Source of the DNA: an uncultured Dehalococcoidales bacterium
GTDB lineage: Bacteria > Chloroflexota > Dehalococcoidia > Dehalococcoidales > BS750m-G39
Direction of reading: 5' to 3'
DNA: 64,000 bases
Assembly: GCA_964396965.1 (NCBI GenBank)
Contig: CAYNGD010000003.1
Coordinates: 106-64,105 of the forward strand
Shown here in pieces: positions 6,858-39,346 of the stretch (its first letter is position 1; each line of letters starts with the position of its first letter). Position numbers and translations under genes: made by a program. The notes under the pieces were generated by a model, which saw only the letters and a list, made by a program, of their open reading frames with translations, was not told the DNA's origin and did not search any database.

Positions 6858-6860
6858 AAG

Positions 6861-7790: not shown

Positions 7791-7799
7791 GGTTAGCTG

Positions 7800-8690
7800 A
7801 TGGTAAACATAATCAGGAAAGAACTGGCCGACTATTTCAACAGCATAAGGTGCTTCATACTGTTTCTGCTGGTATTCGTGGCCAGCGCGGTAGCCCTTTA
7901 CGCCGCCCATCAGGGTATCCGCGATGCCACCAGCGGAAGCAGCTTTATCTTCACCGGCCTGTTTACCACCGGGACCAACATACCTTCGCTGGTGACCTTT
8001 ATCGCCCTCCTCGTCCCCATCATCGGGATAGCCCTCGGCTTTGACGTTATCAATAGTGAGCGCTCCAACGGCACCCTGAACCGAATCCTGTCCCAGCCTA
8101 TCTACCGGGACAGCGTCATCAACGGCAAGTTTCTGGCCGGCATGGTTACCCTAACTATCATGATGCTGACCGCCATGCTGCTGGTTGGAGGCTACGGCCT
8201 GAGGATGATTGGCGTGCCGCCGGCCGCTGAAGAAATCATCCGGCTCTTTATCTACTTCGTCGCCGTCATTATCTACGGGGCCTTCTGGATGGGCCTGGCC
8301 GTCCTTTTCTCCATCTTGTTCCGCAGCCTGGCCATCTCCCTGCTGTGCCCTTTGGCCGTCTGGATACTGCTGGGCAACCCCGTCTTCAACCCCTACGTCA
8401 GTTTTATCGTGCCCGCCGTAAGCCACTCTATAGGGACGCAACTGATGTTGCTGCGGGTTTCCCCCTACTGGCTCTTCGCCGAGGCCACGGCGGCGCTGCT
8501 TGACCCTATGTTTAGGGGTCTGGGAATACTAACCGTCAGTGATACCACCGGGATGTTGTACAGGCCCCTCTCCCTGCAGCAGAGCCTGATTCTGGTCTGG
8601 CCGCAGCTCACCGCCATCATCTGCCTGACCGTTATCTGCTTTGCCGTGAGCTATGTCGTCTTCATGCGGCAGGAGATAAGGTCTACCTAG
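7800..8690 (+). CDS. ABC-2 type permease
   Basis: Multi-TM; ERSNGTLNRILSQP motif; FMRQEIR end. Confidence 0.88.
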   Translation: MVNIIRKELADYFNSIRCFILFLLVFVASAVALYAAHQGIRDATSGSSFIFTGLFTTGTNIPSLVTFIALLVPIIGIALGFDVINSERSNGTLNRILSQPIYRDSVINGKFLAGMVTLTIMMLTAMLLVGGYGLRMIGVPPAAEEIIRLFIYFVAVIIYGAFWMGLAVLFSILFRSLAISLLCPLAVWILLGNPVFNPYVSFIVPAVSHSIGTQLMLLRVSPYWLFAEATAALLDPMFRGLGILTVSDTTGMLYRPLSLQQSLILVWPQLTAIICLTVICFAVSYVVFMRQEIRST

Positions 8691-10750
8691 GCCTTCTCTT
8701 TTTCCGCCTGTCTCTCGGCGATAATCTTCTGGGCAACGTGGGCCGGCACCTCTTCGTAGTGGCTGAAGACCACCTTGTAGCTGCCCCGCCCCTGGGTTAT
8801 CGATTTCAGGTCGATGGCGTAGCGCAGTATTTCCGCCAGCGGCACCTGGGCTTCGATAATATTGACGCCTCCCCCGGGGTTCATCCCCTGCACCCGCGCC
8901 CGCTTGGTGTTGAGGTCGCCGATGATGTCGCCGGTGAACTCCTCGGGGACGGTGGCGGTGATGTTCATTATCGGCTCTAGCATTATCGGCTGCCCCTCGG
9001 TCATCCCTTTCCTGAGCGCCCCCGCCCCGGCAATCTTGAAGCATATCTCCGAGGAATCAACCGGGTGGAAGCTACCGTCGTAGACGGTTGCCCTGAGGTC
9101 GGTGACCGGGTAGTGCGCCAGCACCCCTTCCTTAAAGGCCTCGTTGACCCCCTTCTCCACCGCCGGTATGTAGTTCCTGGGTATGGCCCCGCCCACCACC
9201 TTATCGGCGAATTCGGTGCCGCTGCCCCTGGGCAGGGGCTCAAGCTCGAGCAGGACATGCCCGTACTGACCGTGCCCGCCCGTCTGCTTCTTGTGCTTGT
9301 ACTCGGCCTTGGCGCCGACGGTTATCGTCTCTTTGTAGGGGACTCTGGGTGTCTCCAGTGTTACCGCCACCCCGAACTTGCGCAGCATCTTTTCCGCCGC
9401 CACCTCCAGGTGTGACTCCCCCATGCCGGAGATAACCGTCTCGCCAGTATCAGTGTCACGGCGCACGTGCAGGGTTGGGTCTTCCTCAACTATCCGGGTT
9501 AAAGCTGACCCCAGCTTGTCCACGTCAGTCTTGGTCTTGGGATGCACCCCCAGGCTGAAGGCCGGCTCGGGGAACTCGATAGGGGCGATTGTTAGCGGCT
9601 TGTCCTGGCTGGTGAGGCTATCGCCAGTGCTGGTCAGGGCCAGCTTGGCCACCGCCCCGATGTCCCCCGCCCCCAGCTGGGGCACCGGCTCCTGGTTCTT
9701 GCCCCTCAATACGAAGAGCTGGCCGATGCGCTCGGCACCCTTGCGGCTGGCGTTCCAGACCTGCGAGTTGCTGCTGATGGCGCCGTTATAGACCCGGAGG
9801 TAGGTCAGCTTGCCCACGTAGGGGTCGGCGCTGGTCTTGAAGACCAGAGTCGCCAGCGGCCCGTCCGGGCTGGGCTCGGTCATCTGTCTGGTGGAATCGC
9901 TTAAGGTGACCACCTTGCCCTCTTTGGGCGAGGGCAGGTAGCCGCAGATGGCGTTAAGAAATAGCTTAAAGCCGATATCTTTCAGTGCCGAGCCGGTGAA
10001 GATGGGCACCAACTTGCTGCCCACCACCGCTTGCCGCAGGCCTCTACTCAGTTCCTCCTGGCTGAGTTCGCCCCCCTCCAGGTACTTCTCGATAAGCTTA
10101 TCATCGGCCTCGGCGGCGGCCTCTATCAGTTTCTCCCGGTAGGATTCGGCCTGCTTTTTGAGCGCTTCGGGCAGCTCGGCCTCTTTCCCCTCGGTGCCGG
10201 TATAGGCCTTCATGGTCAGCAGGTCAACTACACCCTCGAACTTGTCCTGGGCACCGATGGGCAGCTGTGCCGGCAGGCACCTTGGGCCGAACTTGGCCTG
10301 AATCTGCCCCACCGTTTTGTTGAAGTCGGCGTTCTCCCGGTCCATCTTGTTGATGAAGATAAGACGGGGCAGCTTGTCTTTTTCGCAGTAACCCCAGGTT
10401 ATCTCGGTGCCCACCTCGACCCCCGAGGCGGCGCAGACCATGATTATCGCCCCCTCGGCCACCCTCATGCTGGCCTTGACCTCGCCGACGAAGTCGGCAT
10501 AGCCGGGGGTGTCCAGCAGGTTAATCTTGATGTCCTGCCACTGGCAGGGGAGAATGGACAGGTTGATGCTTATCTGGCGCTTCACCTCGTTTTCGTCATA
10601 GTCCGAGGTGGTCGTCCCGTCCTCGGTCTTGCCCAGACGCTTGATGGCGCCGGCGTTAAACAGCATGGCCTCGGCGGCGGTGGTCTTGCCGGCGCCGCTG
10701 TGCGACAGCAGGACGACGTTGCGGATATTCTCCATTCCCTGTTTTGGCAT
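8687..10750 (-). CDS. fusA2: Elongation factor G paralogue (EF-G II type)
   Basis: SHSGAGKTT, RQISI in place of RGITI, DTPG, NKMD, KKQTGGHGQYG; outside the str operon. Confidence 0.9.
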   Translation of the reverse strand: MPKQGMENIRNVVLLSHSGAGKTTAAEAMLFNAGAIKRLGKTEDGTTTSDYDENEVKRQISINLSILPCQWQDIKINLLDTPGYADFVGEVKASMRVAEGAIIMVCAASGVEVGTEITWGYCEKDKLPRLIFINKMDRENADFNKTVGQIQAKFGPRCLPAQLPIGAQDKFEGVVDLLTMKAYTGTEGKEAELPEALKKQAESYREKLIEAAAEADDKLIEKYLEGGELSQEELSRGLRQAVVGSKLVPIFTGSALKDIGFKLFLNAICGYLPSPKEGKVVTLSDSTRQMTEPSPDGPLATLVFKTSADPYVGKLTYLRVYNGAISSNSQVWNASRKGAERIGQLFVLRGKNQEPVPQLGAGDIGAVAKLALTSTGDSLTSQDKPLTIAPIEFPEPAFSLGVHPKTKTDVDKLGSALTRIVEEDPTLHVRRDTDTGETVISGMGESHLEVAAEKMLRKFGVAVTLETPRVPYKETITVGAKAEYKHKKQTGGHGQYGHVLLELEPLPRGSGTEFADKVVGGAIPRNYIPAVEKGVNEAFKEGVLAHYPVTDLRATVYDGSFHPVDSSEICFKIAGAGALRKGMTEGQPIMLEPIMNITATVPEEFTGDIIGDLNTKRARVQGMNPGGGVNIIEAQVPLAEILRYAIDLKSITQGRGSYKVVFSHYEEVPAHVAQKIIAERQAEKEKA

Positions 10751-10822
10751 GGGGGCACCTACTCTCTAAAACTTAATCCAACAAGCTATTATACTCGGCG
10801 GTGGCTGATACGGCAAGTTTGG

Positions 10823-11677
10823 CTAGCGTGCCCGGCGTCGCTTTCTTCTTCCGAAAAGGGAGGGGACGAGCCAGAGGAAGAAGATTACGCCGAAAAAGGG
10901 GAGGGGTATGAAGAAAACGCCCCCACCCCCACCACCATTCCCGCTGCTGCCCTCGGAAACGGCCACCAGGGGCGGCGCCGAAGGCCCCGAGGTTGTTACC
11001 GCTTCCGGGGTTATCTCGTAGGCGGCCAGGTTGACGTCGAGGAAATCCTTGGAGGTCCAGCCCAGCGGGTTGTTCTTGCCGGTGGCCTCGGCCCAGACCC
11101 AGCCCGGCTCGCCGTTAACCTCGAAAAGAATGGGTGCCTTGGTGTAGTCGGGGAGATAGACCAGACAGGCGGTGTGCTCCTCGCCGATGACTATCGCCGA
11201 GCGGTAGCCGGCCCCCTTGTACATCACCGCCAGCAGCACGGTGCTGTCCTCGCAGTCGCCGTAGCCGGCCCGGCCCCCCTCGATAATGGCCGCCATCTCG
11301 TCGGCGTTCTGGGCGAACTCGTCGTGACCGAACTGGTCGATATCGGTGGTGTATTTAACCCGGTCCCTCACGAAGCTGAATATGGCCTCCGCCTGCCGGA
11401 TGGGGTCGGCGTAGTTCTGGGCGAACTGCTCGCCCAGTTGGTAGGCCTGAGCGGCGTTGTCACCCAGGCTCTCGAAGGCAATCACCGGGCGGAAGGTACT
11501 ATCGGAAATCTGGTAGAAGCCGTCGTTGCCGAAGGCGCGGGTGCGGCATATCTCCCAGTCGTCGAAGACATCGCCGTTTTTCTCGGTGAAATGCTGGGAG
11601 GGAGACGCCCAGGCGTAGCCGGCGGAGAGCAGGCTGGCCAGCAGAACCAGGCCGATTATGATGGCGACCCTTTTCAT
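10823..11677 (-). CDS. Secreted transglutaminase-like cysteine protease-fold protein with C-terminal membrane anchor
   Basis: Signal peptide; GDCED, EEHTAC and WAEAT putative triad; Gly-rich linker, TM, RRKRRRAR. Confidence 0.75.
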   Translation of the reverse strand: MKRVAIIIGLVLLASLLSAGYAWASPSQHFTEKNGDVFDDWEICRTRAFGNDGFYQISDSTFRPVIAFESLGDNAAQAYQLGEQFAQNYADPIRQAEAIFSFVRDRVKYTTDIDQFGHDEFAQNADEMAAIIEGGRAGYGDCEDSTVLLAVMYKGAGYRSAIVIGEEHTACLVYLPDYTKAPILFEVNGEPGWVWAEATGKNNPLGWTSKDFLDVNLAAYEITPEAVTTSGPSAPPLVAVSEGSSGNGGGGGGVFFIPLPFFGVIFFLWLVPSLFGRRKRRRAR

Positions 11678-12159
11678 AGCGGCGCAGTCAGGGCGGCGTG
11701 GAGGATGAGGCCGAAGAAGACCAGGTAGCCGAAGACCTGTATCCCCGCCGCCACCGGGCTTTTACTGATGCTGGCGAAGGGTATCCGGGGCGTCAGCTTA
11801 TCTATGATATAGAACATAGCTACCCCGACGAACAGGCTCACCACAAAGCTTATCGCCAGCAGCCCCCAGCTCCTGAAGTCGAAGATGTACCAGACAATGG
11901 GTGCGGTGACGGCGGTGAGGGCGGTAACGGCGCCATGGATGACCAGCCCGATGAGAATGAAGAAGCCACCGATGAACAGTCCGGTGGCCACCGGGTCCTC
12001 GCCGATGAGTTCGCGTTGGGTGATTTGGGGGGTGAGGACGTCGAACACCCGCACCCCGAGGAGGGCCAGCAGCCCGGAGATGAAGGCCAGCAGCACCACC
12101 TTGGCCAGCCATATCAGCACGATTACCCAGAAAGGGGCGACCAGACCGAGCTCATTCAT
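11674..12159 (-). CDS. Four-TM membrane protein (DUF350-like)
   Basis: Two hydrophobic repeats (GEDPVATGLFIGG / SKSPVAAGIQVFG); 4-bp overlap with downstream gene. Confidence 0.6.
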   Translation of the reverse strand: MNELGLVAPFWVIVLIWLAKVVLLAFISGLLALLGVRVFDVLTPQITQRELIGEDPVATGLFIGGFFILIGLVIHGAVTALTAVTAPIVWYIFDFRSWGLLAISFVVSLFVGVAMFYIIDKLTPRIPFASISKSPVAAGIQVFGYLVFFGLILHAALTAPL

Positions 12160-12177
12160 AGCGTCTCCTCCTTGTCG

Positions 12178-12729
12178 TTAGCGGCCTATCAGCAGCGGGG
12201 TGAGGTAGGTCTCGATGGCCGCCGCGGGCAGCATCAGGGCCAGCGCCAGGCCCAGATAGAACAGGTTCTGCCGCAGGCTGGGCAGAAGCAGCCCCCGCTT
12301 TTCCTTTTTGAACAGGGCAATCACCACCATAATGCCGAAGCTGAGCGCCGCCGCCTCCCCGATGAACAGGGCGGGTAGCTCGATGACGCCATGAGGCAGC
12401 AGTCCAGCCAGGACAAAGCCCAGTGACTTCTGCTGCGCGACCATGGTTGACACCAGCCCCAGAATCCAGCCGTTGAGAAACAGGGTGGCCACGGGTATTA
12501 TCGCCAGAATGGGGCTGAAGGCGAAGCTGAAAAGCAGGGTGATAACGTTCTTGATAAAGATAAAGATAAACATGGTGAAGGTGAAGGGGGTCAGGATTCC
12601 CCCCAGTTGCTCCAGGCTGATGAGCTCCTGGGAGAGCAGGCTGGAGATGTTGGCCGGGTCAGCCAGGCCGAAGGCTAGGCCGGCGCCGAACAGGGCGACG
12701 GCGATAACAATCCACCACCGGTATCTCAT
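12178..12729 (-). CDS. Stage II sporulation protein M family membrane protein
   Basis: IFIKNV, LNGWILG, LLPHGVIELPA, AAIETYLTP. Confidence 0.88.
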   Translation of the reverse strand: MRYRWWIVIAVALFGAGLAFGLADPANISSLLSQELISLEQLGGILTPFTFTMFIFIFIKNVITLLFSFAFSPILAIIPVATLFLNGWILGLVSTMVAQQKSLGFVLAGLLPHGVIELPALFIGEAAALSFGIMVVIALFKKEKRGLLLPSLRQNLFYLGLALALMLPAAAIETYLTPLLIGR

Positions 12730-13313
12730 GCTGGCTCAGCCTTTTTGACGCCGAACTTATCGTAGAAGACGATTTCGGCTAGCTCCTTCCTGGGCCTGGG
12801 GTTGGGCGTTTCATCGGGGTAGCCCAGCGGTGTCATCGAGACGACGACAAAGCCCTCGGGCACCCCCAGAATCTCGGCTACCTTAATAGCATCAAAGGCG
12901 CCGATGTGGACCGTGCCCAGCCCCAGGGCGTGGGCGGCCAGCGTCAGGTTCTGCACGGCCAGGGCCACGTCATACATGTACCAGTCGCCCTTATCGGTGA
13001 CCGGCCCCCTTGGCTCTCTGGTGGAGTAGCCCGACTTCCTCAGCTCGGCGCAGGCGACGATGGTCACCGGCGCGGTTCTTAGCGCTTCGGCGCCCCGATT
13101 GGCCTTACCTCTGGTCACCTCAATGGTGGTATCGGCCAGCTTATTCCTTAGCCGGCTGTCCCGCACCACGATAAACCGCCAGCATTGGCTGTTATGCCAG
13201 GACGGCGCCTGGCGGGCGGCTTCCAGGACTAGCTCCAGTGTCTTATCGTCAACCGGCCTGGTCTGATACCGGCGGATGCTTCTCCGGCCCTTAATTGCTT
13301 CCATAATTTCCAT
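12726..13313 (-). CDS. Nitroreductase family protein
   Basis: RRSIRRY, APSWHNSQCWRF, LGLGT, LGYP. Confidence 0.92.
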   Translation of the reverse strand: MEIMEAIKGRRSIRRYQTRPVDDKTLELVLEAARQAPSWHNSQCWRFIVVRDSRLRNKLADTTIEVTRGKANRGAEALRTAPVTIVACAELRKSGYSTREPRGPVTDKGDWYMYDVALAVQNLTLAAHALGLGTVHIGAFDAIKVAEILGVPEGFVVVSMTPLGYPDETPNPRPRKELAEIVFYDKFGVKKAEPA

Positions 13314-13325
13314 ATCGTTCTCCTT

Positions 13326-13967
13326 TTATTCCTCTTCTTCCCAGGCGCCCCTGCCGATTAAAGAGACGAAGCGGCAGCCGCCCAGGTTATCTATCTTGTT
13401 CTTATTCCGGCCCCGGGTAATCTTGCACAGATCCTGGACATAGCGGGAGCCCACCGGAATCACCAGCCTCCCCCCGATGGCCAGCTGGGCGATTAGCTCG
13501 GGCGGCACCTTGGGGGCGGCGGCGGTAGCCATGATGGCGTCATAGGGAGCCTCACGCCGCCAGCCCAGTGTTTCCTCGGCCAAATGCACCTCAATATTTT
13601 TATAGCCCAGCTCAACCAGCAGCTTCTTAGCCCGGTCAGCTAAGGGCTTGACCCGCTCGGTGGTAATCACCCTCTTGGCCAGTTGAGCCAGGATAGCCGC
13701 CTGATAACCGCTGCCGGTGCCTATCTCCAGGACCTTCTCCTGGCCGGTAAGCTCCAGCGCCTGGGTCATCAGGGCGATAATAAACGGCTGGGAGATGGTC
13801 TGCCCGTAGCCGATGGGCAGCGGTTTATCGGCGTAGGCCAGCTGGCGGCTCTCCGGGGGTACGAAGAGTTCCCTGGGGATGGCGCCCATGGCCGCCAGTA
13901 CCTGCTTATTCTTAATCTCGGCGCCAAGTTGCTTGATTAACTCCGCCCTGGCCGCTGCAAAATCCAT
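13326..13967 (-). CDS. pcm: Protein-L-isoaspartate O-methyltransferase
   Basis: QTISQP, LEIGTGSGYQAA, APYDAI; start placed at ATG 13967 (MDFAAARA). Confidence 0.93.
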   Translation of the reverse strand: MDFAAARAELIKQLGAEIKNKQVLAAMGAIPRELFVPPESRQLAYADKPLPIGYGQTISQPFIIALMTQALELTGQEKVLEIGTGSGYQAAILAQLAKRVITTERVKPLADRAKKLLVELGYKNIEVHLAEETLGWRREAPYDAIMATAAAPKVPPELIAQLAIGGRLVIPVGSRYVQDLCKITRGRNKNKIDNLGGCRFVSLIGRGAWEEEE

Positions 13968-13993
13968 AATAGCCGCCCCCACCGGTCCCGGTT

Positions 13994-14287
13994 TCAAGAG
14001 AGAGTCAGGGCCAGAATCACCAGAATAACCACTATTGCCCCGGCCAATATGCCGATCCGGCGCAGCTCGGCGGCTACGTCAGCGGACTGGACCGCCACCG
14101 CCGGGGCCTTCGGTTTTGGCGCTAGTGACGCTGGCTTCCCGGCCATGGGGGTCGGCTTAACCGCCTCGGCCGCTACTGGTGCCTGAACCGCCGGTGCCTG
14201 AACCGCCGGTGCCTTAACCACCGCTGAGGTAAAGGTCTTCCTGCCTTTTCTCTTGCCCCGCTGTCGGCCCCGCCTTGATTTAGGCAT
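13994..14287 (-). CDS. Small hypothetical membrane protein with basic N-terminus and Ala/Pro linker
   Basis: MPKSRRGRQRGKRKGRK start, APAVQ repeats, C-terminal TM; overlaps xerD stop. Confidence 0.7.
   Translation of the reverse strand: MPKSRRGRQRGKRKGRKTFTSAVVKAPAVQAPAVQAPVAAEAVKPTPMAGKPASLAPKPKAPAVAVQSADVAAELRRIGILAGAIVVILVILALTLS
14178..14222. repeat. In-frame 15-bp tandem repeat, 3 copies
   Basis: GGTGCCTGAACCGCC x2 plus GGTGCCTTAACCACC; encodes AVKAP/AVQAP. Confidence 0.85.
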
Positions 14288-15203
14288 CTGCTACCTCCTG
14301 TCTCGCCCTCGGGTGAGATCTTTCATAGGCGCGCCGGACGTGTTCCGTGGTCAGGTGGGTATAGACCTGGGTGGTCGATATATTGGCGTGCCCCAGCAGC
14401 TCCTGCACCGACCTCAGGTCCGCCCCGCCGCTTAACATATGGGTGGCGAAGCTGTGCCTCAGGGTGTGGGGGGTAATCTCCACGCCCAGCTTGGCTGATT
14501 TGGCGTAGCCCTTCAGTATCTGCCACAGCCCCTGCCGGGTCAGCCTCTCGCCGCGCCGGTTGAGGAAGAGGGCCTCTTCCCCACTGCCGGCTTTCAGCCT
14601 AGGGCGGCCCTGGTTCAGGTAGTCTTTAAGCGCGGCTACCGCCTGGCTGTGGATGGGGATGAGCCTTTCCTTGCCCCCCTTACCGAAGCAGCGCACGTAG
14701 CCGCCGCCGGTATCAATATCGTTCAGGTTCAGCGAGACCAGTTCGCTTACCCTCATGCCGCTGGCGTAGAGCAGGTGCAGCATGGCCTTATCCCTCTTGG
14801 CTTCGGGCGTGTCCCTCTTTTCCGTCTCCTCCAGCAGCTGGCGGGCCTGGGTGATTGAGATTGGCTTGGGCAGCGCCCGGCCCACCCTGGGGGAGGGCAC
14901 ATCACGCGTCGGGTTTTCCTTTACCAGCCCCTCCGACGTCAGGAAGTTGAAGAAGGACTTGACCGCGGCCACCTTGCGGGCGACGGTGGTAGCGGCGTAG
15001 CGCCTCTCCTTGAGGTTGGTCAAATAACTCAGGATGGACTGCCGGTCAAAAGCCGTCCAGGGGGTAGTGGCGCCCCCCTTGGCCGATTCTTCCAGAAAGC
15101 CGGTAAACTGGTTCAGGTCATTCTCATAGGCTAGTATGGTGTTCTGGGAAAAGCCCTTTTCCACCTCTAGGTATTTTAGGAATTTATCAATCTCTTCTTT
15201 CAC
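14280..15203 (-). CDS. xerD: Site-specific tyrosine recombinase XerD
   Basis: ASGMRVSEL, GKGGKER, HTLRHSFATH, LLGHANISTTQVY. Confidence 0.92.
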   Translation of the reverse strand: MKEEIDKFLKYLEVEKGFSQNTILAYENDLNQFTGFLEESAKGGATTPWTAFDRQSILSYLTNLKERRYAATTVARKVAAVKSFFNFLTSEGLVKENPTRDVPSPRVGRALPKPISITQARQLLEETEKRDTPEAKRDKAMLHLLYASGMRVSELVSLNLNDIDTGGGYVRCFGKGGKERLIPIHSQAVAALKDYLNQGRPRLKAGSGEEALFLNRRGERLTRQGLWQILKGYAKSAKLGVEITPHTLRHSFATHMLSGGADLRSVQELLGHANISTTQVYTHLTTEHVRRAYERSHPRARQEVADA

Positions 15204-28112: not shown

Positions 28113-28461
28113 GGTCAAGTAAACTGGGTGACCGCCCCATTTTTGGGGAGGAAAGTCCGAGCTCCACCGGGCAGGATGCTGGCTAACGGCCAGGGGGGGC
28201 GACCCTACGGAGAGTGCCACAGAAACACACCGCCTCCTTCTGGGGGTAAGGGTGAAATGGTGAGGTAAGAGCTCACCGGCGGCTGGGTGACCGGTCGGCT
28301 GGGTAAACCCCATCCGGAGCAAGGCCAAATAGAGGGACACAGGGACGCCCGGCCTGTCCCCGGGTTGGCCGCTTGACCCTGGTGGTAACATCAGGGCTAG
28401 ATAGATGGTCACCGCCCCGATTCGTCGGGGTACAGAACTCGGCTTACAGGTTTACTTGGCC
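28113..28461 (+). ncRNA. rnpB: RNase P RNA (bacterial type A)
   Basis: GAGGAAAGTCC, AGTGCCACAGAAA, AAACCCC, GAGCAAGGCCAAATA, ACAGAACTCGGCTTA; 5'/3' ends pair (GGTCAAGTAAAC / GTTTACTTGGCC). Confidence 0.96.
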
Positions 28462-28558
28462 TTTTGACTTTTGGCACTTTTTGGCAACTAAGGTCATTAG
28501 TGATGCACCCTGTGCAAGGAAGTGCGCCAACTGTGCCGGTTCTGTTCGGTGTTGCCAT
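28409..28558 (-). pseudogene. N-terminal fragment of split integrase-like gene, int(N)
   Basis: AAGGAGG (28567-28573), 8 nt, ATG 28558; 41 codons run through the att core, then stop antisense within rnpB; frame matches the fragment beyond attR. Confidence 0.6.
28436..28462 (+). repeat. attL: 27-bp direct repeat (3' end of rnpB)
   Basis: AACTCGGCTTACAGGTTTACTTGGCCT, identical to 39320-39346. Confidence 0.93.
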
Positions 28559-28997
28559 CGTCTTGCCCTCCTTTTCATCATCTTCGCTTATGATTATAGA
28601 TTTGTCAATAGCCTCGTGTCTGAATGGGACAGATGGATAGCTTTAGTTCGACTTCAATAGGCCAATAGAAAGCAAAGGGGGGTCGGTACAACTATTTCTG
28701 ATCAAATAACTGTCTCTGATTATATGCCATAACTCTCACCTAATGCAGGCTCACTTCGCGGCTGGTTAAACAAAACAATGTTTTGTGACCTGTTTAGCCT
28801 TATATACTTAACTTAGTTGCACCATCTGGACTTTTGGTCAATCAATAGGCATTAATATGCCAAACGAAACAGATTGTCAGTACAATACTTCCTTGCTTGT
28901 TTTCCCCAGCAAGGAAATCTCTTGCCCAACCTATAGCTTGACATGGCAGGCATTTCGTTTATAGTATAGCAAAGACATTCAATTTTGGGATGGACAC

Positions 28998-29411
28998 ATG
29001 GTCAAGCCGAAAACGGCCAAGCCAGGAAATAAACCCTCTCGAAGCCGGGAAGCAGGCTACAGCATAAGAGGCCGCATCTGGGTTGAGAAAGACGGTGAAC
29101 TGTATTTGGGGTGGGGCCGAGTGATACTTTTGGAGCGATTGGATGAGATGGGGTCAATTGCCGCTGCCGCTCGTTCCATGGGGCTAACCTATCGCAATGC
29201 TTGGTTGTGGATAGAGTCCATGAACCGCTTGGCTCCTTCCCCTTTGGTTGAGAAGACAATCGGTGGGGGCGGCGGCGGTCATACCAAACTGACAGAGGAA
29301 GGGCATAAAGCCGTCGCCCTATACAAAGAGTTGCACCTCCATTTAGAGAAACTCTTGGAGCAAGAAGCCCTATACATTAACCACGAAAGTGGTGTCCCCG
29401 TATCCCCTTAA
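28998..29411 (+). CDS. ModE-like winged-helix regulator (DNA-binding domain only)
   Basis: GRIWVE, LGWGRVILL, GSIAAAARSMGLTYRNAW, GGGGGGHTKLT; no TOBE domains. Confidence 0.85.
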   Translation: MVKPKTAKPGNKPSRSREAGYSIRGRIWVEKDGELYLGWGRVILLERLDEMGSIAAAARSMGLTYRNAWLWIESMNRLAPSPLVEKTIGGGGGGHTKLTEEGHKAVALYKELHLHLEKLLEQEALYINHESGVPVSP

Positions 29412-29481
29412 CCTAATAATACTAGCTAAGAACCTTTCAAGGCACGTATCAGCTTTATTTAGCAGTTAAGCCGGATCCCAC

Positions 29482-29510
29482 TTGACAAGTCGCTATACCT
29501 TCTGTAATAT
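29482..29510 (+). promoter_or_regulatory. Sigma70 promoter of ABC uptake operon
   Basis: TTGACA-17-TAATAT. Confidence 0.65.
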
Positions 29511-29524
29511 ACACATAATTTAAA

Positions 29525-29546
29525 CTATATCTCCGCAGATATAGCG
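29525..29546. promoter_or_regulatory. ModE-box-like palindrome
   Basis: CTATATCT-CCGC-AGATATAGCG; related CGCTATAC...ATATAC at 29491-29512 overlaps the promoter. Confidence 0.55.
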
Positions 29547-29589
29547 CCTCAGAACTTTGCCGAGAATAAAACGAAGGAGGTCAATTAAT

Positions 29590-30675
29590 TTGAAAACCAA
29601 GGTCTTGACTATTTTTGCGGTTCTGATTCTAGTAGTTGCTCTAATAGCCAGTTTGACCGGTTGTCAGAGCACGGGCGCTCACAATGCTCCGGCAACACCC
29701 GCGCCTACCACCAGAACCATCACCGATATGTATGGCCGCCAGATCACCGTGCCCACCACGATTAATCGCGTGCTGGGCACCAGCCCGATAGAAATGGAGC
29801 TGGTCTATATGCTTGCCCCGGACAAGCTGGTCGGGCTGGCCGTCGAAGTTAAAGGCCAGCCCCCGCTGGTGCCGGAGAAGTACAGCAGCCTACCTGTAAT
29901 AGGGGGCTGGTTCGGCACCCAGACCGGCAACTACGAGACCTTCATCGCCGCTAAACCGGACATCATCCTAGAGGGCTTCGAATCCAGTATTGCCGAAAGG
30001 CAGGAGAAGTTCGGCTCCATCCCAGTGGTGGGCGTCAACGCCGGTGATTATCTAACGAACTACGAAAACGAGGTGCGCTTCCTGGGGGATCTGCTGGGGG
30101 TACAGGCGCAGGCCCAAAGCCTTATCACCTACTACAAGGATGCCATGCAGTATGTCGAAAACGTTGTTTCCGGTATCCCGGATAATGCCAGGGTAAAAGT
30201 GTACTATGCCGAAGGCAAGGATGGTTTCAGTACCGACCCCTCTGTTTCGATGCATACCAAGTTGCTGGAGTTCTGCGGCGGCGAGAACGTGGCCAAGGTT
30301 ACTTTAATACCGGGTTACGGCATGGCCGAGACATCCCTAGAGCAAATCGCACTGTGGGACCCGGACATGATTATCATCGGCCGCAGCAGTCAGGCAACAC
30401 TGTATCAAACGATTATGACCGACTCCAAATGGAGCCAGCTTAAAGCAGTGAAAAACAAGCAGGTCTTCCTTCGGCCGGATAACCCCCTCTCCTGGTTCGA
30501 TGGCCCGCCGGGGCCGTGCCAGATTATCGGCCTGTACTGGATGGTGCACACGCTGTATCCCGATAAAACTAAAGATTTGGACCTGGGGGCCAAGGTTAAA
30601 GAGTTCTACGCCAAATTTTTGCACTATCAACTGACCGATGCCGAGGTGGCCGGGCTGTTAGCCAATCCAAGCTAA
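29590..30675 (+). CDS. ABC transporter substrate-binding lipoprotein (class III, BtuF/FhuD/MolA-like)
   Basis: TTG start after AAGGAGG; lipobox LTGC; TITDMYGRQITVP, KPDIIL, WDPDMIII. Confidence 0.88.
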   Translation: MKTKVLTIFAVLILVVALIASLTGCQSTGAHNAPATPAPTTRTITDMYGRQITVPTTINRVLGTSPIEMELVYMLAPDKLVGLAVEVKGQPPLVPEKYSSLPVIGGWFGTQTGNYETFIAAKPDIILEGFESSIAERQEKFGSIPVVGVNAGDYLTNYENEVRFLGDLLGVQAQAQSLITYYKDAMQYVENVVSGIPDNARVKVYYAEGKDGFSTDPSVSMHTKLLEFCGGENVAKVTLIPGYGMAETSLEQIALWDPDMIIIGRSSQATLYQTIMTDSKWSQLKAVKNKQVFLRPDNPLSWFDGPPGPCQIIGLYWMVHTLYPDKTKDLDLGAKVKEFYAKFLHYQLTDAEVAGLLANPS

Positions 30676-30679
30676 AAAA

Positions 30680-31759
30680 ATGGTTACTGTGGAAAAGGTA
30701 AAGCCGGGCGCGAAGAACTCAAGCTCCGTCCAGGCAAAGAGACTGGGACTGGGCGGGGTATCTACCGGCGTTATTCTGGCCGGTATACTGGCAGTGCTTT
30801 TCATCCTCTCGTTCGCTATTGGCAGATACCCCGTCTCCCCCGTGGATGTGGTCAAGATACTGGTTTCTCATATTCTGCCTCTGCAGCATACTTGGCCCGA
30901 TATACTGAATACGATAGTGATACAGATAAGACTGCCGAGAATACTGGCGGCGATACTGGTAGGCGCCAGCCTAGCGCTGGCTGGCGCCTCCTTTCAGGGA
31001 CTCTTTCGCAACCCGCTGGTGTCTCCAGATATTCTGGGAGTCAGCACGGGCGCCGGCTTCGGCGCCGCCGTGGCTATCCTGCTCTCCTGGAACATGGTCA
31101 TGATACAGGTAGCCGCCTTCATCAGCGCTTTGGTGGCCGTGGGCGTTTCCTACGGCGTGAGCAAGATGGTCAAAGGTAACACTACACTGACCCTCATTCT
31201 GGCGGGCATGGCTATCGGCTCTCTCTTCGGTGCCTTACTTTCTCTGGTGAAATACGTCGCCGACCCCACCAACCAGTTGCCCACCATCACCTACTGGCTC
31301 ATGGGCAGTCTGGCTTCGGTAAGTACACGTGACCTGCTTTTCGCCGCTATCCCGATGCTGGTGGGTATCGCTGTGCTCATCCTTATCCGCTGGCGCTTCA
31401 ACGTGTTGGCGATGGGTGAGGAAGAAGCCATGGCACTGGGAGTAGAAACCAGCCGGCTGCGTGCCATAATCATCGTCTGCTGCACCATGATTACGGCCTC
31501 CTCGGTATGTATCAGCGGCACCATCGGCTGGGTGGGGCTGGTTATTCCCCATATCGGCCGCATGCTGGTAGGGCCGAACCACAGAAGACTCCTCCCCGTG
31601 AGTCTGCTGTTGGGAGCGGCTTACCTCCTGCTGATTGACAATATCTGCCGGGTAGTGGCCAGTGTGGAGATTCCGATAGGGATTCTCACGGCGATTGTCG
31701 GCGTGCCGTTCTTTATTTACCTGCTCAACAGGAGCGGAAGGGGGTGGGCATGGAGCTAA
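30680..31759 (+). CDS. FecCD/BtuC-family ABC permease
   Basis: IRLPRI, FRNPLVSPDILGVS, GTIGWVGLVIPH. Confidence 0.92.
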   Translation: MVTVEKVKPGAKNSSSVQAKRLGLGGVSTGVILAGILAVLFILSFAIGRYPVSPVDVVKILVSHILPLQHTWPDILNTIVIQIRLPRILAAILVGASLALAGASFQGLFRNPLVSPDILGVSTGAGFGAAVAILLSWNMVMIQVAAFISALVAVGVSYGVSKMVKGNTTLTLILAGMAIGSLFGALLSLVKYVADPTNQLPTITYWLMGSLASVSTRDLLFAAIPMLVGIAVLILIRWRFNVLAMGEEEAMALGVETSRLRAIIIVCCTMITASSVCISGTIGWVGLVIPHIGRMLVGPNHRRLLPVSLLLGAAYLLLIDNICRVVASVEIPIGILTAIVGVPFFIYLLNRSGRGWAWS

Positions 31760-32592
31760 TAGTAAATAATGCCGAATTCCACTATGATGCCATCGGAAAC
31801 AGCGGTTTTAAGAACATCAACTTCTCCCTGGAAGATGGCGAGGTAATGTCCATTCTCGGCCCCAATGGTTGCGGCAAGACGACCCTGCTGAAGTGCCTCA
31901 ACAACTTGATTAGACTCGGTAAAGGGAGCATAGCGGTGGATAATCAGGATGTATCGCGTCTGCCCAGAGCCGAGATAGCCAGGTCTATCGGCTATGTGCC
32001 GCAGATGCACCAGCCTGTCTTCCCCTTTACTGTCCTGGATACCGTGCTGGTGGGTAGAGCGCCTCACCTTGGGCTGCTGGCTTCCCCGAAACCGGAGGAT
32101 GTTAAAATTGCCGAACAATCCTTGGACATTATGGGCATTTATCATCTTAGGGATAGACCTTATACCCAGATAAGCGGCGGTGAGAGGCAACTGGTTATCT
32201 TTGCCCGGGTGTTGGCCCAGCAGCCGGCACTTCTCCTTCTGGATGAACCCACCTCGCACCTGGACTTTGGCAATCAGATACGCGTTTTGCACTTGGTGGA
32301 GGAGCTGGCGGCCACCGGCCTTCCTATCATCATGACTACCCACTTCCCTGACCACGCCTTTCTTATGTCCAGCAAGGTGGCTATCATGAAAAATGGTGAG
32401 TTCTTGGACTTTGGCCCGCCTGATGAAGTTATTACCGATGCCAATCTGGAGAAGGCCTACGGCATCAAGGTTAAGGTGCTGGATGTGGATGGCGCTATTA
32501 ACCGAAGAATATGCCTGCCCCTCAAGAGCGACCTTAACTCTATCTCAAACTTAAATATTCTATTGGAGAGACTGTATGGACGAAAACTTTGA
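31750..32592 (+). CDS. ABC transporter ATP-binding protein (FepC/BtuD-like)
   Basis: GPNGCGKTT, ISGGERQ, LLDEPT. Confidence 0.92.
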   Translation: MELIVNNAEFHYDAIGNSGFKNINFSLEDGEVMSILGPNGCGKTTLLKCLNNLIRLGKGSIAVDNQDVSRLPRAEIARSIGYVPQMHQPVFPFTVLDTVLVGRAPHLGLLASPKPEDVKIAEQSLDIMGIYHLRDRPYTQISGGERQLVIFARVLAQQPALLLLDEPTSHLDFGNQIRVLHLVEELAATGLPIIMTTHFPDHAFLMSSKVAIMKNGEFLDFGPPDEVITDANLEKAYGIKVKVLDVDGAINRRICLPLKSDLNSISNLNILLERLYGRKL

Positions 32593-33115
32593 TTTTCTTC
32601 TGCAAAAAGCCAAGGCTTTTCACGGTGATGTCTGTGCCGGTATAGTCCTGGGCACACGATTGACCATAGCCGGCATGAAGGCTCTGGGTATGGACCCCAC
32701 AAAGCGTAACCGCGACCTTATCGTTTTTGTGGAGATTGACCGCTGTATGTCAGACGCAGTGCAGGCCATTACGGGCTGTTCACTGGGGCACCGCACCCTG
32801 AAGTATATTAACTACGGCAGGTTTGCTGCCACTTTCTATGACATGAGTAGAAACCGGGCAGTGCGTGTCTCCCGACGTAATCTACCTATGGGTAATGAAG
32901 ACCTTGTTGAAGCATACACAAACGCTCCAGAAGAGGAGTTGATCAAACTGGAGGAGGTTAAAGTCAGCCTGGATAGTCATGACCTGCCGGGCAGGCCACA
33001 ATCGATGGAGGAGTGCAGCCATTGTGGCGAGCTTATCTTTGATAGTAGAGGGGTCAATGCGGATGGTAAGCTCTTGTGCCGGGCCTGTGCCAGTGGTGCT
33101 TATTATAGCCATTAA
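32576..33115 (+). CDS. FmdE family protein with C-terminal zinc finger
   Basis: FHGDVCAG, EIDRCMSDAVQ, CSLGHRTL, CSHCGE...CRAC. Confidence 0.88.
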   Translation: MDENFDFLLQKAKAFHGDVCAGIVLGTRLTIAGMKALGMDPTKRNRDLIVFVEIDRCMSDAVQAITGCSLGHRTLKYINYGRFAATFYDMSRNRAVRVSRRNLPMGNEDLVEAYTNAPEEELIKLEEVKVSLDSHDLPGRPQSMEECSHCGELIFDSRGVNADGKLLCRACASGAYYSH

Positions 33116-33143
33116 CCAAAGAGCCAGATAAGGAGGCAAAAAC

Positions 33144-33890
33144 ATGATGAAGCTAATAGACGACCTTATTTCAGCAGTACGTCATAATGCCGCTTCGGCT
33201 AAGGATGTGCGAGTGGGGGTCTCTTGGACCGGGGTATGGGGCAAGTACTGCGGGCTTTCCAAGACCTACGGTGTACCTTTTGTCCATGGCAACTACACCC
33301 GTGATATGGGCCACTTGACCGAAAAGACCACCCTGGAACTGGCGGAGTACGCCAAGTCCTGGAACCTGATTGAGGCCAGCATCGGGGTAGCCGCCATCAA
33401 TTCGATGATTAAGGCTAAAGGGGCAGTCAACATCAACGCACGGGAAATCATCCTGCGTAAGGGGCAGGGCAAACGGATAGCGATGTCGGGTGCCTTTCCC
33501 TTTACCCCGGAACTCAAAAAGCTGGCCAAGCAGTTGTGGGTGATGGAACTGGACCAGAGTCAGCTTAATCCAGCCCAAGGCATCATCACTGAAACTGCTG
33601 CTGAATACATCATTCCAGAGTGCGACATAGTGATTATCACCGGCTCCACACTCATCAATAAATCCATGGAAAGACTGCTGGAACTGGCCCGGTTAGCTAA
33701 AGCCTATACTGTTGTTCTCGGCCCCAGCACTCCACTGAGTGAAGTTCTTTTTGACTATGGCGCTCACTTGGTAGCAGGCGCTGAAGTCGTCCAGCCTGAA
33801 GCGGTGCTCAAGAAGCTAAGCCAGAGCGGGGGCATGCTGGATACCAAGGTCTGCCCGGGCGAAATTGCATTTAAGGTTCTGGAAAGATGA
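33144..33890 (+). CDS. DUF364 family protein (Rossmann-like, putative metal chelation)
   Basis: ASIGVAAINS, IITGSTLIN, LGPSTPL. Confidence 0.85.
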   Translation: MMKLIDDLISAVRHNAASAKDVRVGVSWTGVWGKYCGLSKTYGVPFVHGNYTRDMGHLTEKTTLELAEYAKSWNLIEASIGVAAINSMIKAKGAVNINAREIILRKGQGKRIAMSGAFPFTPELKKLAKQLWVMELDQSQLNPAQGIITETAAEYIIPECDIVIITGSTLINKSMERLLELARLAKAYTVVLGPSTPLSEVLFDYGAHLVAGAEVVQPEAVLKKLSQSGGMLDTKVCPGEIAFKVLER

Positions 33891-34537
33891 ACTACCAGAC
33901 CGACCCTCAGCGGATGAACCTGATTGCCAAACTCGCCTTTGCCCCGATATACCCCTATTTAGCCCAGCAGATAAGGGACAAGTTCGGCATAACCAATGGA
34001 ATATGCGTTGACCTTGGTTCGGGCCCGGCCTCACTGGCTATCGCCATAGCCCGCATCACCGATTTAACCATCTATTCCTTGGACATCCAGCCTGAGATGA
34101 TCAGTGTTGCTCGGCAGAATATCGCCGAAGCCGGGTTTTCTTCCCGTATACGCGCCGTAACTGCCGATGTGTGTCGGATGCCCTTTGAAGATAATTCGGT
34201 TGACCTGATGGTTAGCCGCGGCTCTATTTTCTTCTGGGAAGACCGGGTAACGGCTTTCCGGGAAATATACCGTGTCCTCCGGCCCGGCGGGGTAGCCTAC
34301 TGCGGCGGCAGCCTTGGTGACGATACCACGCGGGCGCAGGTAATAGCCGCCTTCAATACCATTGCTGAACTCCAACCATATAAGGAAGATTGGCAGCACA
34401 CAGTCAGCCGCAATATGAATAAGCTGACCTTGGAAACCATGCTCGAAGAACTGGGGCAGGCTGGCGTGCCGGGCACCGTGGAAAAAGAAAACGGAGGTAT
34501 CTGGGCACAGATAATCAAACTGAATAACGAGGCGTAA
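33887..34537 (+). CDS. Class I SAM-dependent methyltransferase
   Basis: VDLGSGPA, DVCRMPF, SRGSIFFW, VLRPGG. Confidence 0.88.
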   Translation: MNYQTDPQRMNLIAKLAFAPIYPYLAQQIRDKFGITNGICVDLGSGPASLAIAIARITDLTIYSLDIQPEMISVARQNIAEAGFSSRIRAVTADVCRMPFEDNSVDLMVSRGSIFFWEDRVTAFREIYRVLRPGGVAYCGGSLGDDTTRAQVIAAFNTIAELQPYKEDWQHTVSRNMNKLTLETMLEELGQAGVPGTVEKENGGIWAQIIKLNNEA

Positions 34538-34775: not shown

Positions 34776-35558
34776 ATGAAAATAAAGCAAGCTTTTGATA
34801 TTCACACTGGTGAAGTGATAAGTCTCGTAGGTGGCGGTGGCAAAACGGCTCTGATGTTTGCCATAGCCCGTGAAATGGTTCTGGACAAGAACCGAATTAT
34901 TACCACGACCACCACCAAAATCTTCGAACCCTTACCTTCTCAGACACAAAAACTTCTTGTGGAGAAAAATGAGGTGAAACTGCTAAAGTTGCTGCTCCAG
35001 CAAATTGATAATTACACTCATATCACCTTAGCCAGTGAAAAACTAGGTTCGGGAAAGTTAAATGGCATCAACCCAGAGCTGGTGACAAAGCTAGCCGGAA
35101 TTGAGAAAATATCTTGCATTATTATTGAAGCAGACGGAGCAGCACACAAATCGCTGAAAGCACCAAACGCAACGGAGCCGGTAATGCCAGATAATACCTC
35201 CCTGGTCATACCAGTCGTGGGCGTTGATGCCTTGGGTTGCCGCTTGACTAAAGAAGAGGTTTTTAGACCAGAAATTGCTGCCGAGTTACTCGGAGTGCCC
35301 ATTGGCGAGGTTATGACAGCCGAGTTGATTGCTCGCTTGATAACTCACCCCCGGGGTATAACCAAAGGAAGCCCGGAAGGGGCAAGGATTATCCCGTTTA
35401 TAAATAAAATGGATTTAAATGAAGGTTTGTCAAAGGGAAGAATCATGGCAAATATGATTTTGGCAATGGGTCATTCTCAAATAAAGTACGTCGTGCTAGG
35501 TCAAGCTCAATCACCAAACCCTGTGACAGAAGTCATTCGGGAGAAAAATCATGGCTGA
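34776..35558 (+). CDS. yqeC: YqeC-family selenium/molybdenum hydroxylase accessory protein
   Basis: SLVGGGGKT, TTTTKI, EADGA..K.LKAP..TEPV.P. Confidence 0.87.
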   Translation: MKIKQAFDIHTGEVISLVGGGGKTALMFAIAREMVLDKNRIITTTTTKIFEPLPSQTQKLLVEKNEVKLLKLLLQQIDNYTHITLASEKLGSGKLNGINPELVTKLAGIEKISCIIIEADGAAHKSLKAPNATEPVMPDNTSLVIPVVGVDALGCRLTKEEVFRPEIAAELLGVPIGEVMTAELIARLITHPRGITKGSPEGARIIPFINKMDLNEGLSKGRIMANMILAMGHSQIKYVVLGQAQSPNPVTEVIREKNHG

Positions 35559-35818: not shown

Positions 35819-35848
35819 TTGACAAATACCTATTGCATAAAATATAAT
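35819..35848 (+). promoter_or_regulatory. Sigma70 promoter of Fur-family gene
   Basis: TTGACA-18-TATAAT. Confidence 0.65.
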
Positions 35849-35864
35849 TGCAACTAGGTGCAAT
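35847..35864. promoter_or_regulatory. Putative Fur-family operator, copy 1
   Basis: ATTGCAACTAGGTGCAAT, one mismatch to the palindrome at 36315. Confidence 0.75.
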
Positions 35865-35868
35865 AACC

Positions 35869-36282
35869 ATGAGCTGCTTGGAAACATTAAGAGAAAAAGA
35901 CCTGAAGCTAACTCCCCAGAGAAGACTGATAATAGACATTATTAACGATGCTCATTCACATCTTACGGGAGAAAATATTATCGACTATGTACAGAGCAAG
36001 ATGCCAAGAGTAAATAAGTCTACCATTTACCGCACTCTGGATATCTTGGAACAAGCCGGATGCGTTTTTAAGAGTAAATACGGCAATCATTTCATCTACC
36101 ATCACGCTGAAGAAGGCCATCATCATCACCTGGTTTGCCGGAGGTGCGGTAAAACCGTGGAATGTTCGGAAAATCTCTTCAGTCAGGTTGAGCAGTCTGT
36201 GGCGGAAAAATATGGCTTCCAGGTTAGTTTCAGACATATCGTGATGAATGGTCTTTGTGGTAACTGTAAAAATCAAGGTTAG
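35869..36282 (+). CDS. Fur-family metal-sensing regulator (Zur/Nur-like)
   Basis: LTPQRRLI, STIYRTL, HHHHLVCRRCG, GLCGNC. Confidence 0.9.
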   Translation: MSCLETLREKDLKLTPQRRLIIDIINDAHSHLTGENIIDYVQSKMPRVNKSTIYRTLDILEQAGCVFKSKYGNHFIYHHAEEGHHHHLVCRRCGKTVECSENLFSQVEQSVAEKYGFQVSFRHIVMNGLCGNCKNQG

Positions 36283-36314: not shown

Positions 36315-36332
36315 ATTGCAACTAGTTGCAAT
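36315..36332. promoter_or_regulatory. Putative Fur-family operator, copy 2 (perfect palindrome)
   Basis: ATTGCAACT-AGTTGCAAT upstream of the cbiM SD. Confidence 0.8.
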
Positions 36333-36359
36333 TAGAATAAGGAGGTAAAGGAGTATCAG

Positions 36360-39319: not shown

Positions 39320-39346
39320 AACTCGGCTTACAGGTTTACTTGGCCT
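39320..39346 (+). repeat. attR: displaced copy of rnpB 3' end
   Basis: AACTCGGCTTACAGGTTTACTTGGCCT, identical to 28436-28462. Confidence 0.93.

Follow-up and report, generated by a model that had tools for sequence, protein, structure and literature searches.

What does an ATP-binding cassette (ABC) importer take up when the relatives of its binding protein are named in databases as 'iron complex transport system substrate-binding protein', and when a ModE-type regulator gene stands in front of it and an FmdE gene follows its ATPase gene? The question is raised by positions 28998-34537 of a 64 000-nucleotide (nt) stretch of contig CAYNGD010000003.1, from an uncultured Dehalococcoidales bacterium (assembly GCA_964396965.1); this whole stretch is hereafter the window, and positions refer to it unless a contig (C) or a related locus (L) is named. 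From sequence comparison, we consider it probable (about 0.6) that the operon encodes a molybdenum (Mo)-responsive importer of the MolBC-A type (type II, with a FecCD-family permease), carried on a genomic island at the RNase P RNA gene rnpB. In Haemophilus, MolBC-A is the type II importer of molybdate and tungstate (PMC4031551).

All genes of this locus lie on the plus strand. A 137-amino-acid (aa) ModE-type regulator consisting of a winged helix-turn-helix (HTH) only (28998-29411; TIGR00637 in an NCBIfam search) is followed by a class III (Peripla_BP_2) substrate-binding lipoprotein related to MolA (29590-30675; Pfam), a MolB-like permease of the FecCD type (type II ABC; 30680-31759; PF01032, 306 bits), an ABC ATPase (31744-32592; PF00005), a protein that joins an FmdE domain to a DksA/TraR-type C4 zinc ribbon (32576-33115; PF02663, 98.5 bits with a cut-off of 22.9, and PF01258), a DUF4213 plus DUF364 protein (33144-33890; Pfam, DUF364 being PF04016 at 127 bits; nearest structure 3l5o) and a class I S-adenosylmethionine (SAM)-dependent methyltransferase (33887-34537; Pfam; nearest structure 3dlc, 1e-47). 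The start of the binding protein was assigned to a TTG at 29590, preceded by AAGGAGG, and its lipoprotein signal ends in LTGC. From the binding protein through to the methyltransferase, successive genes are 4 nt apart, overlap by 16 nt and then by 17 nt, stand 28 nt apart and finally overlap by 4 nt; the six therefore form one operon. An earlier interpretation made from the letters alone (the sequence-only reading) had described a ModE winged-HTH gene lacking TOBE domains and, behind it, the same six closely packed functions. Pfam and NCBIfam bore out each assignment (that of the regulator at a score under its NCBIfam cut-off), the measured spacing agreed, and neither database gave a TOBE match or a C-terminal di-TOBE (Mop) domain in the regulator.

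The transporter itself points to Mo or tungsten (W). Among solved structures the permease is closest to HI1471 (MolB; 2.6e-75, 257 bits), followed by FhuB (179 bits), HmuU (169 bits) and BtuC (151 bits). When a profile of 23 binding-protein homologues (53-77% identical) was searched against the PDB, the strongest matches were 4pag (3e-65), 4ovk (2e-37) and MolA (3psa/3psh; 6e-31), while BtuF (~1e-5), FhuD, CeuE and IsdE were weaker, between 1e-9 and 1e-4. MolA is the third-best solved relative and the first that is characterised and has a known ligand. Because the permease is nearest MolB and, among characterised proteins, the binding protein is nearest MolA, the nearest characterised system to the window transporter is, as judged by sequence, MolBC-A. 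The preference of the sequence-only reading for Mo/W (or a metal-organic cofactor) over iron thus agrees with both components, the binding protein being far nearer MolA than the B12, siderophore and haem binders. The binding-protein family is tightly conserved (the 53-77% identity given above) and is common to Dehalococcoidia, Bathyarchaeia and Bacillota.

Regulation of the orthologous operons points the same way. A scan for related loci with one genome per species returned 73 loci, which were mapped with phmmer. In the close ones (L006-L045), which belong to Dehalococcoidia, to Bathyarchaeia and further archaea, to a single Bacillota genome and to a few others, the core order binding protein-permease-ATPase-FmdE recurs, with DUF364 and the methyltransferase present in many; early contig ends conceal part of this conserved order. 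Co-occurrence had been proposed earlier as a check on the Mo/W assignment, and the controls behind which the orthologues stand speak in favour. Four kinds of Mo-linked control precede these operons, namely the molybdenum cofactor (Moco) riboswitch, Tfx, ModE (in Chlorobi) and ModE-type boxes.

Riboswitch aptamers of the Moco family (RF01055) lie directly upstream, on the same strand, in five Dehalococcoidia genomes whose binding proteins are 63-71% identical (two aptamers each in L006 and L010, one each in L007, L008 and L009). The P3 stem is retained in the four displayed aptamers, and the remaining three are 136-149 nt long; genes related to Moco have been associated with this stem, and W-cofactor genes with riboswitches that lack it (Regulski et al., PMC2408646). 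No RF01055 aptamer was found with Rfam at the window operon itself. In L007, from a Dehalococcoidales genome, the riboswitch (83-231) precedes a ModE-like HTH-only gene (380-790), a layout that would place the Mo regulator itself under cofactor control.

A Tfx-type regulator is encoded directly upstream in all 11 of the 11 Bathyarchaeia loci recovered, and the Tfx of Methanothermobacter binds the fmdECB operon of the Mo-dependent isoenzyme (PMC3087415). The Chlorobi versions, more distant at ~35% identity, lie near ModE, which is split between neighbouring HTH-only and di-TOBE genes in L048 and encoded by a single gene in L052 and L061, and their clusters include a TonB-dependent receptor and TonB. 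The L048 cluster (4454-14643) holds genes for FecCD, an ATPase, the TonB-dependent receptor, a methyltransferase, a class III binding protein, an SBP_bac_6 protein, a CobW-like GTPase, an ABC ATPase-like protein, TonB, the ModE HTH and the di-TOBE protein, and may represent an outer-membrane-to-cytoplasm route of Mo acquisition in green sulfur bacteria. As for ModE-type boxes, L041 has a two-box promoter like that of the window with an equal spacing of 32 nt, in L014 a CGTTATAT-N6-ATATAACG box comes after a ModE-like gene, and the L027-L035 group has two GTTATATC-N6-AATATTAC boxes. In L027, L028 and L030-L035 a 'start-stop' element, conserved in several loci, was seen just 5' of the two boxes and ~130-170 nt 5' of the binding-protein start: a mini open reading frame with a strong Shine-Dalgarno sequence, an ATG, 1-9 codons (mostly one or two) and a stop. 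Together, the P3-containing riboswitches, Tfx and the origin of FmdE in fmd rather than fwd lean towards Mo over W, as a correlation only.

In the window, the operon promoter (TTGACA-17-TAATAT, 29482-29510, plus strand; read from the sequence and matching the consensus at 10 of 12 positions in a scan) is accompanied by two inverted repeats, neither of them assigned to a strand. Box 1 (CTATACC-N6-AATATAC, 29493-29512), the weaker, spans the promoter spacer and the -10 hexamer. Box 2 (29525-29544), CTATATCT-CCGC-AGATATAG, is an inverted repeat whose two 8-nt arms match perfectly around a 4-nt centre; it begins 15 nt 3' of the -10 hexamer, at a spacing of 32 nt from box 1, and is the sole perfect copy in the genome. 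The palindrome described earlier at 29525-29546 is therefore real, but it ends at 29544 and is one of two boxes. The ModE-like gene has a promoter-like site of its own (TTGACA-16-TATAGT, 28938-28965, plus strand; 11 of 12 consensus matches). An exact-palindrome scan of the genome allowing up to 4 mismatches gave mostly noise, and a degenerate box pattern combined with coding context was more useful. This pattern occurs at 9 places (12 strand hits) in the 1.75-Mb genome, where shuffled sequences average 1.55 strand hits; box occurrence exceeds chance. Four of the nine places are intergenic, two at the operon and two at the locus of a paralogous ModE-like gene, the other five lying inside coding frames. 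Since the intergenic boxes are confined to the two ModE-like loci, the predicted regulon consists of these two operons.

The paralogue, likewise HTH-only (C7:81953-82264), belongs to a locus (C7:81231-87168) with the order MobA-like, ModE-like, NMT1-type binding protein, permease, TOBE-ATPase and tungsten-type aldehyde:ferredoxin oxidoreductase (AOR). Boxes occur both in the promoter of the paralogue itself and ahead of its transporter, and the position and type of box 1 recur in the former (C7:81830) and in L041. The NMT1-family binding protein and TOBE-ATPase beside AOR may belong to a type of tungstate/molybdate transporter not yet described. At the level of sequence, both boxes of the window have the form of ModE-family operators, inverted repeats at the promoter that would be regulated; the AT-rich TATAT...ATATA kind of operator found here, overlapping the promoter, is presumably also that of the classical ModE box. 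Among solved structures, the window regulator comes closest to 2ijl, described as a 'Mo-binding transcriptional repressor' (HTH-only, 135 aa), and to E. coli ModE (1b9m).

The earlier argument that a regulator without TOBE domains needs a separate sensor gained support on three sides: Chlorobi encode HTH and di-TOBE as adjacent genes or as one fusion, the genome of the window encodes a stand-alone TOBE protein, and FmdE is fused to or abuts a ModE-type HTH in many loci. The stand-alone protein (C31:10433-10642), a 69-aa single-TOBE (Mop/molbindin) protein, adjoins polA and is a candidate trans-acting Mo sensor for both HTH-only ModE paralogues. In the metagenome locus L097, polA lies ~1 kb from an FmdE-HTH gene and is divergent from it.

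FmdE is the most regular partner of the transporter among the close loci that reach past the ATPase gene. The metal-ligand positions of its N-terminal domain, as defined by structure (PMC2954224), correspond to H16, C20 and C57, which are invariant, together with C147/C150/C168/C171 of the zinc ribbon, among the window protein and 27 transporter-linked homologues; the second histidine of the FHGHxC motif is an aspartate in the window. In L006, L007, L009 and L024 the ATPase and FmdE share one open frame of ~460 aa, and two further ATPase-FmdE fusions (P0121 and P0122) were found in a library of 5.8 billion proteins. The same library contains two proteins (P0123 and P0124) in which FmdE and the zinc ribbon are joined to a ModE-type HTH, the FmdE part being 44% identical to that of the window and the HTH part 45% identical to the window regulator, with a TIGR00637 score (82 bits) level with that of the regulator. 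An exhaustive search of 1.84 billion representatives combined with Pfam showed that both orders, FmdE-HTH and HTH-FmdE, occur, and recovered an FmdE-HTH-MoCF_biosynth triple as well as MobB-FmdE, FmdE-MobB and TrmO_N-FmdE fusions. Proteins in which FmdE is joined to MobB, to TrmO_N (UPF0066) or to HTH plus MoCF_biosynth include P0131, P0134, P0145, P0129, P0138, P0171, P0180 and P0126; the MobB-FmdE fusions recall the YqeC gene that follows the window operon and the CbiA/ParA-like P-loop protein encoded after the Bathyarchaeial operons.

Among 80 metagenome loci, FmdE and HTH are fused in 13 (counted in loci of at least 4 kb) and abut on the same strand in ~35, ~48 in total. In 11 of the 14 abutting pairs checked, the two are split by one stop codon, followed by 2-7 codons to an in-frame ATG. 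A neighbouring gene encodes a molybdopterin-binding-domain (MoCF_biosynth) protein in L097 and L111, the latter also with a Mo-dependent bis(pyranopterin guanine dinucleotide) (bisPGD) enzyme upstream of the FmdE/HTH pair, and a TOBE gene stands ahead of the pair in L130 and L131. When genomes across the class were searched with the FmdE-HTH fusion, only FmdE parts came back; the fusions were seen in protein libraries and metagenomes.

Given these fusions to the ATPase, to ModE-type HTH, to MobB and to molybdopterin-binding domains, FmdE is probably a Mo-sensing or Mo-accepting partner. As far as fusions can indicate, its two positions, joined to the ATPase and joined to the ModE HTH, are those that TOBE holds in classical systems. 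More tentatively, and with rather less confidence than we place in the Mo assignment of the operon, FmdE could be a cytoplasmic domain for sensing and handing over Mo (or Moco) that replaces TOBE/Mop domains in both repressor and ATPase. The 2010 structure paper noted that most FmdE genes neighbour metal transporters, and a Mo-sensing role was not proposed there. The genome encodes a second FmdE (C5:22729-23322, minus strand), which has no zinc-ribbon match in Pfam and lies beside an ArsR-family regulator, a TauE/SafE exporter and an SBF-family transporter, a non-Mo setting that possibly concerns a metalloid or sulfur anion and gave no help to the Mo interpretation.

DUF364 and the methyltransferase are accessory. 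Each is missing from several orthologous operons in the presence/absence map, and homologues of the methyltransferase adjoin the binding-protein gene also in Chlorobi and Methanomicrobiales loci. The DUF364 gene of M. maripaludis lies inside the mod operon, is cofit with nifH and has fmdE as its next gene. A literature search for papers naming both FmdE and DUF364 found none. A weak second DUF364 on contig C8 has no Mo context and likewise did not help. When the sequence-only reading spoke of 'uptake and tailoring of Mo/W', uptake was the part that stood, through the kinship with MolB and MolA, the riboswitches, Tfx and ModE; tailoring is unsupported, and several orthologous operons lack DUF364. 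A YqeC-family gene (34776-35558, plus strand; TIGR03172, 169.8 bits, above the cut-off) lies 238 nt downstream of the operon and is possibly associated with it, yet is not conserved with it, as none of the 73 related loci matches YqeC.

The genome has a use for imported metal. It encodes five Mo/W-bisPGD enzymes and AOR, as well as MoaA, MoaC, MoaE and MoeA, and therefore needs the metal and not an imported cofactor. On contig C5, a Moco-family riboswitch without P3 (the 'Tuco', or W-cofactor, type; L001:11177-11298) precedes an operon for a permease, a TOBE-ATPase and a ModA/WtpA-type protein; one Mo/W system would therefore be RNA-controlled and two others protein-controlled.

The operon lies within what looks like an integrated 'trace-metal' island. 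The gene rnpB (28116-28462, plus strand; Rfam RF00010, 311 bits) ends in a 27-nt sequence (28436-28462, plus strand) that is repeated perfectly at 39320-39346 (plus strand), and the 10.9-kb stretch between these direct repeats carries the operon, the YqeC-family gene, a Fur-family regulator and CbiMN-Q-O. GC content is 0.46-0.55 over 28-40 kb, compared with mostly 0.55-0.62 outside. The binding protein was found in none of 12 sampled genomes of the same family (one of them of the same genus) and in 27 of the 200 genomes sampled elsewhere in the order, a patchy distribution that fits horizontal acquisition of the operon. Two copies of a ATTGCAACTAG-type palindrome, at 35847-35873 and 36315-36341, are found by the Fur-family gene and 5' of cbiM, away from the importer operon and its ModE-type boxes.

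Seen in the sequences are the genes, the promoter and boxes, the family relationships, the regulatory settings of the orthologues and the domain fusions; the substrate, the repression and the partnerships of FmdE with regulator and ATPase are what we infer from these comparisons. A Mo species (possibly W), most simply molybdate or tungstate, would be captured outside the cell by the binding lipoprotein and received by the MolB-like permease, with the ATPase driving import. With Mo (or Moco) sufficient, a dimer of the HTH-only ModE-like protein, of a divergent family, would occupy boxes 1 and 2 and block the promoter, aided by a ligand-binding partner that may be the FmdE of the operon or the 69-aa Mop protein; with Mo scarce, the operon would be expressed. 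FmdE would serve as a cytoplasmic metal- or cofactor-binding partner that takes or senses the metal at the ATPase.

Several observations weigh against this scheme. The regulator matches TIGR00637 (1.3e-23) at 82.9 bits, under the 98.5-bit cut-off, and a ModE-like gene stands immediately beside the operon in only one related locus (L014). A riboswitch-controlled ModA/WtpA system and a second TOBE-ATPase transporter are already present, and a third Mo/W importer needs a reason. The metal site in FmdE structures held Zn/Ni, not Mo (PMC2954224), and 4pag and 4ovk, the two nearest solved relatives of the binding protein, carry no known ligand. The oxyanion contacts of MolA (K221, R264, Y301 and Y114; bioRxiv 10.64898/2026.10.15.759412) align to S220, the vicinity of R265, D304 and F130 respectively (offset 21; alignment weak in lobe I), such that only the arginine is plausibly kept, as the invariant R265, through a 2-residue alignment slip. 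With the contacts of MolA mostly unkept, the pocket therefore differs from that of MolA. Lastly, the TonB-dependent receptor in the Chlorobi cluster hints at a chelated substrate.

These last points bear on the alternative that fares best, which we consider unlikely: that the cargo is a Mo/W-organic chelate (a 'molybdophore') or a thiomolybdate/thiotungstate, with FmdE, DUF364 and the methyltransferase releasing the metal or processing or making the ligand. Class III binding proteins mostly carry bulky chelates, and the family has, in place of most MolA contacts, an invariant polar/aromatic set of its own that includes E116, D216, H222, R265, R295 and W302. The hosts (Dehalococcoidia, Bathyarchaeia, Chlorobi, Methanomicrobiales) are anaerobes of sulfidic settings, and molybdate is thiolated fast under sulfidic conditions (PMC10390477). 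FmdE offers a Cys/His site and DUF364 a SAM-binding fold; the only characterised DUF364 enzyme, Streptomyces Orf5 (azetidine-carboxylate synthase), cyclises a SAM derivative (PMC12930334), an activity not transferable to the window protein. TonB and its receptor in the Chlorobi clusters would suit such a cargo. However, the cluster has no exporter or recognisable chelator-synthesis genes, the loss of DUF364 and of the methyltransferase from several orthologous operons means that neither is essential to uptake, and MolB, the closest relative of the permease, moves a small substrate.

Salvage of a pterin-type precursor (cyclic pyranopterin monophosphate, molybdopterin or Moco), with FmdE as cofactor carrier, is improbable. 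The cofactor is what Moco riboswitches sense, FmdE is found joined to MobB and molybdopterin-binding domains, large ligands would suit a class III binding protein, and a pterin or flavin was guessed as ligand in the DUF364 structure paper (PMC2954201). Against this, the closest permease relative moves a small anion, and the genome can make the cofactor with its own MoaA, MoaC, MoaE and MoeA, for which reason Moco salvage was rejected as the principal interpretation. Moco is, moreover, highly labile outside proteins.

An ordinary importer of corrinoids, haem or ferric siderophores with Mo-related neighbours by coincidence is slightly less credible still. Its appeal lies in the 'iron complex' names in databases, in the BtuC model, which is the top NCBIfam match of the permease, far under its cut-off, and in the binding protein being the only Peripla_BP_2 protein in the 91%-complete genome, corrinoid salvage being common among Dehalococcoidia. 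Yet no cobalamin riboswitch (RF00174) was found in the assembled 91%-complete genome or at the operon, and BtuF, FhuD, CeuE and IsdE are much weaker relatives than MolA; the corrinoid version was rejected on the missing riboswitch and the weak similarity to BtuF (~1e-5). The Fur-type palindromes, at 35847 and 36315, are not at the importer operon, and three unrelated Mo-linked regulatory devices precede its orthologues. Least likely of all is an importer of Ni or Co complexes acting as one arm of a 'metal island', as the presence of the Fur-family regulator and CbiMN-Q-O on the island, the binding of Ni complexes by some class III proteins (4ls3 and 4ino, at ~3e-7 in the binding-protein profile search) and the Zn/Ni in the FmdE crystal site (PMC2954224) might suggest, but that CbiMNQO unit is served by a regulator and palindromes of its own, the importer genes of related loci have no CbiMNQO or Fur-family match beside them (the only CbiO matches there being weak, of the ABC-ATPase kind, several kb off and in some distant loci), and every regulatory link of the orthologues points to Mo.

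Read as a Mo importer, the window system can be set beside those already described. With H. influenzae MolBC-A (HI1470/HI1471/HI1472) it shares the FecCD-type permease, the class III binding protein, the coexistence with a classical Mod-type system and, as proposed here, repression by the metal: MolBC-A is reportedly repressed by molybdate through an unknown factor (PMC4031551). Unlike MolBC-A, its binding protein is nearer 4pag/4ovk and keeps at most one of the four oxyanion contacts, and its operon adds FmdE, DUF364, a methyltransferase and an explicit ModE-type regulator with boxes. E. coli ModE/ModABC offers the ModE-type HTH and the proposed logic of an uptake operon repressed at metal sufficiency. 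ModE there combines HTH and di-TOBE, with TOBE also on ModC in some species, whereas regulator and ATPase of the window lack TOBE, the transporter is type II rather than type I, and FmdE would take the positions of TOBE, if the fusions are a guide. The regulator resembles 2ijl and the split ModE of Chlorobi in being HTH-only and ~135-145 aa long. In Chlorobi, though, a di-TOBE gene comes after the HTH gene, next to a transporter cluster related to this one, and no TOBE gene adjoins the window regulator, the only stand-alone TOBE of the genome being encoded on another contig by polA.

As in the Moco/Tuco regulons (Regulski et al. 2008), orthologues of the operon are riboswitch-controlled, some by tandem aptamers; the window operon differs in having no riboswitch and, apparently, protein-operator control in its place. 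No mention of FecCD/FmdE-type operons was found in the main text of that paper, which cites an FhuD structure paper and whose supplement may mention one. The methanogen fmd systems share FmdE (in the fmdECB operon of the Mo isoenzyme of Methanothermobacter), with Tfx ahead as in the Bathyarchaeial orthologues, and the modABC-DUF364-fmdE neighbourhood of M. maripaludis has DUF364 and fmdE beside Mo transport genes. In contrast to the fmd systems, where FmdE accompanies an enzyme, here it accompanies a transporter ATPase, to which it is fused in relatives; no formylmethanofuran dehydrogenase gene was found among the genes annotated at ~25-46 kb of the window, the whole genome not having been searched for them. 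Several elements were already known one by one: the MolBC-A importer, ModE proteins reduced to the HTH, the Moco riboswitch, and the gene neighbourhoods that FmdE and DUF364 tend to keep. For the conserved operon, its control by three or four Mo-linked devices and the FmdE-for-TOBE pattern, no description was found in the literature searched.

If the Mo reading is right, hundreds of related proteins annotated as 'iron complex transport' in Dehalococcoidia, Bathyarchaeia and further anaerobes would carry the wrong name, belonging instead to Mo/W systems, and trace-metal supply in these uncultured groups would have to be read differently. We know of no regulator or partner of MolBC-A described to date; the orthologues give a system of this type three different Mo-linked controls plus FmdE as a constant partner. 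To our knowledge, FmdE has been without an assigned function ever since the sequencing of the fmd operons in the 1990s, and its fusion pattern (ABC ATPase, ModE HTH, MobB and molybdopterin-binding domain) provides a concrete, bench-testable hypothesis. Should the proposal for FmdE hold, FmdE with a ModE-type HTH would be a new kind of Mo-responsive repressor, FmdE with the ATPase would gate or unload a MolBC-type importer, and FmdE would at last have a role, also in the fmdECB operon of methanogens. Sharing a small rnpB-targeted island with a Ni/Co uptake unit and moving with it, the operon would make trace-metal acquisition a horizontally traded trait in a streamlined genome.

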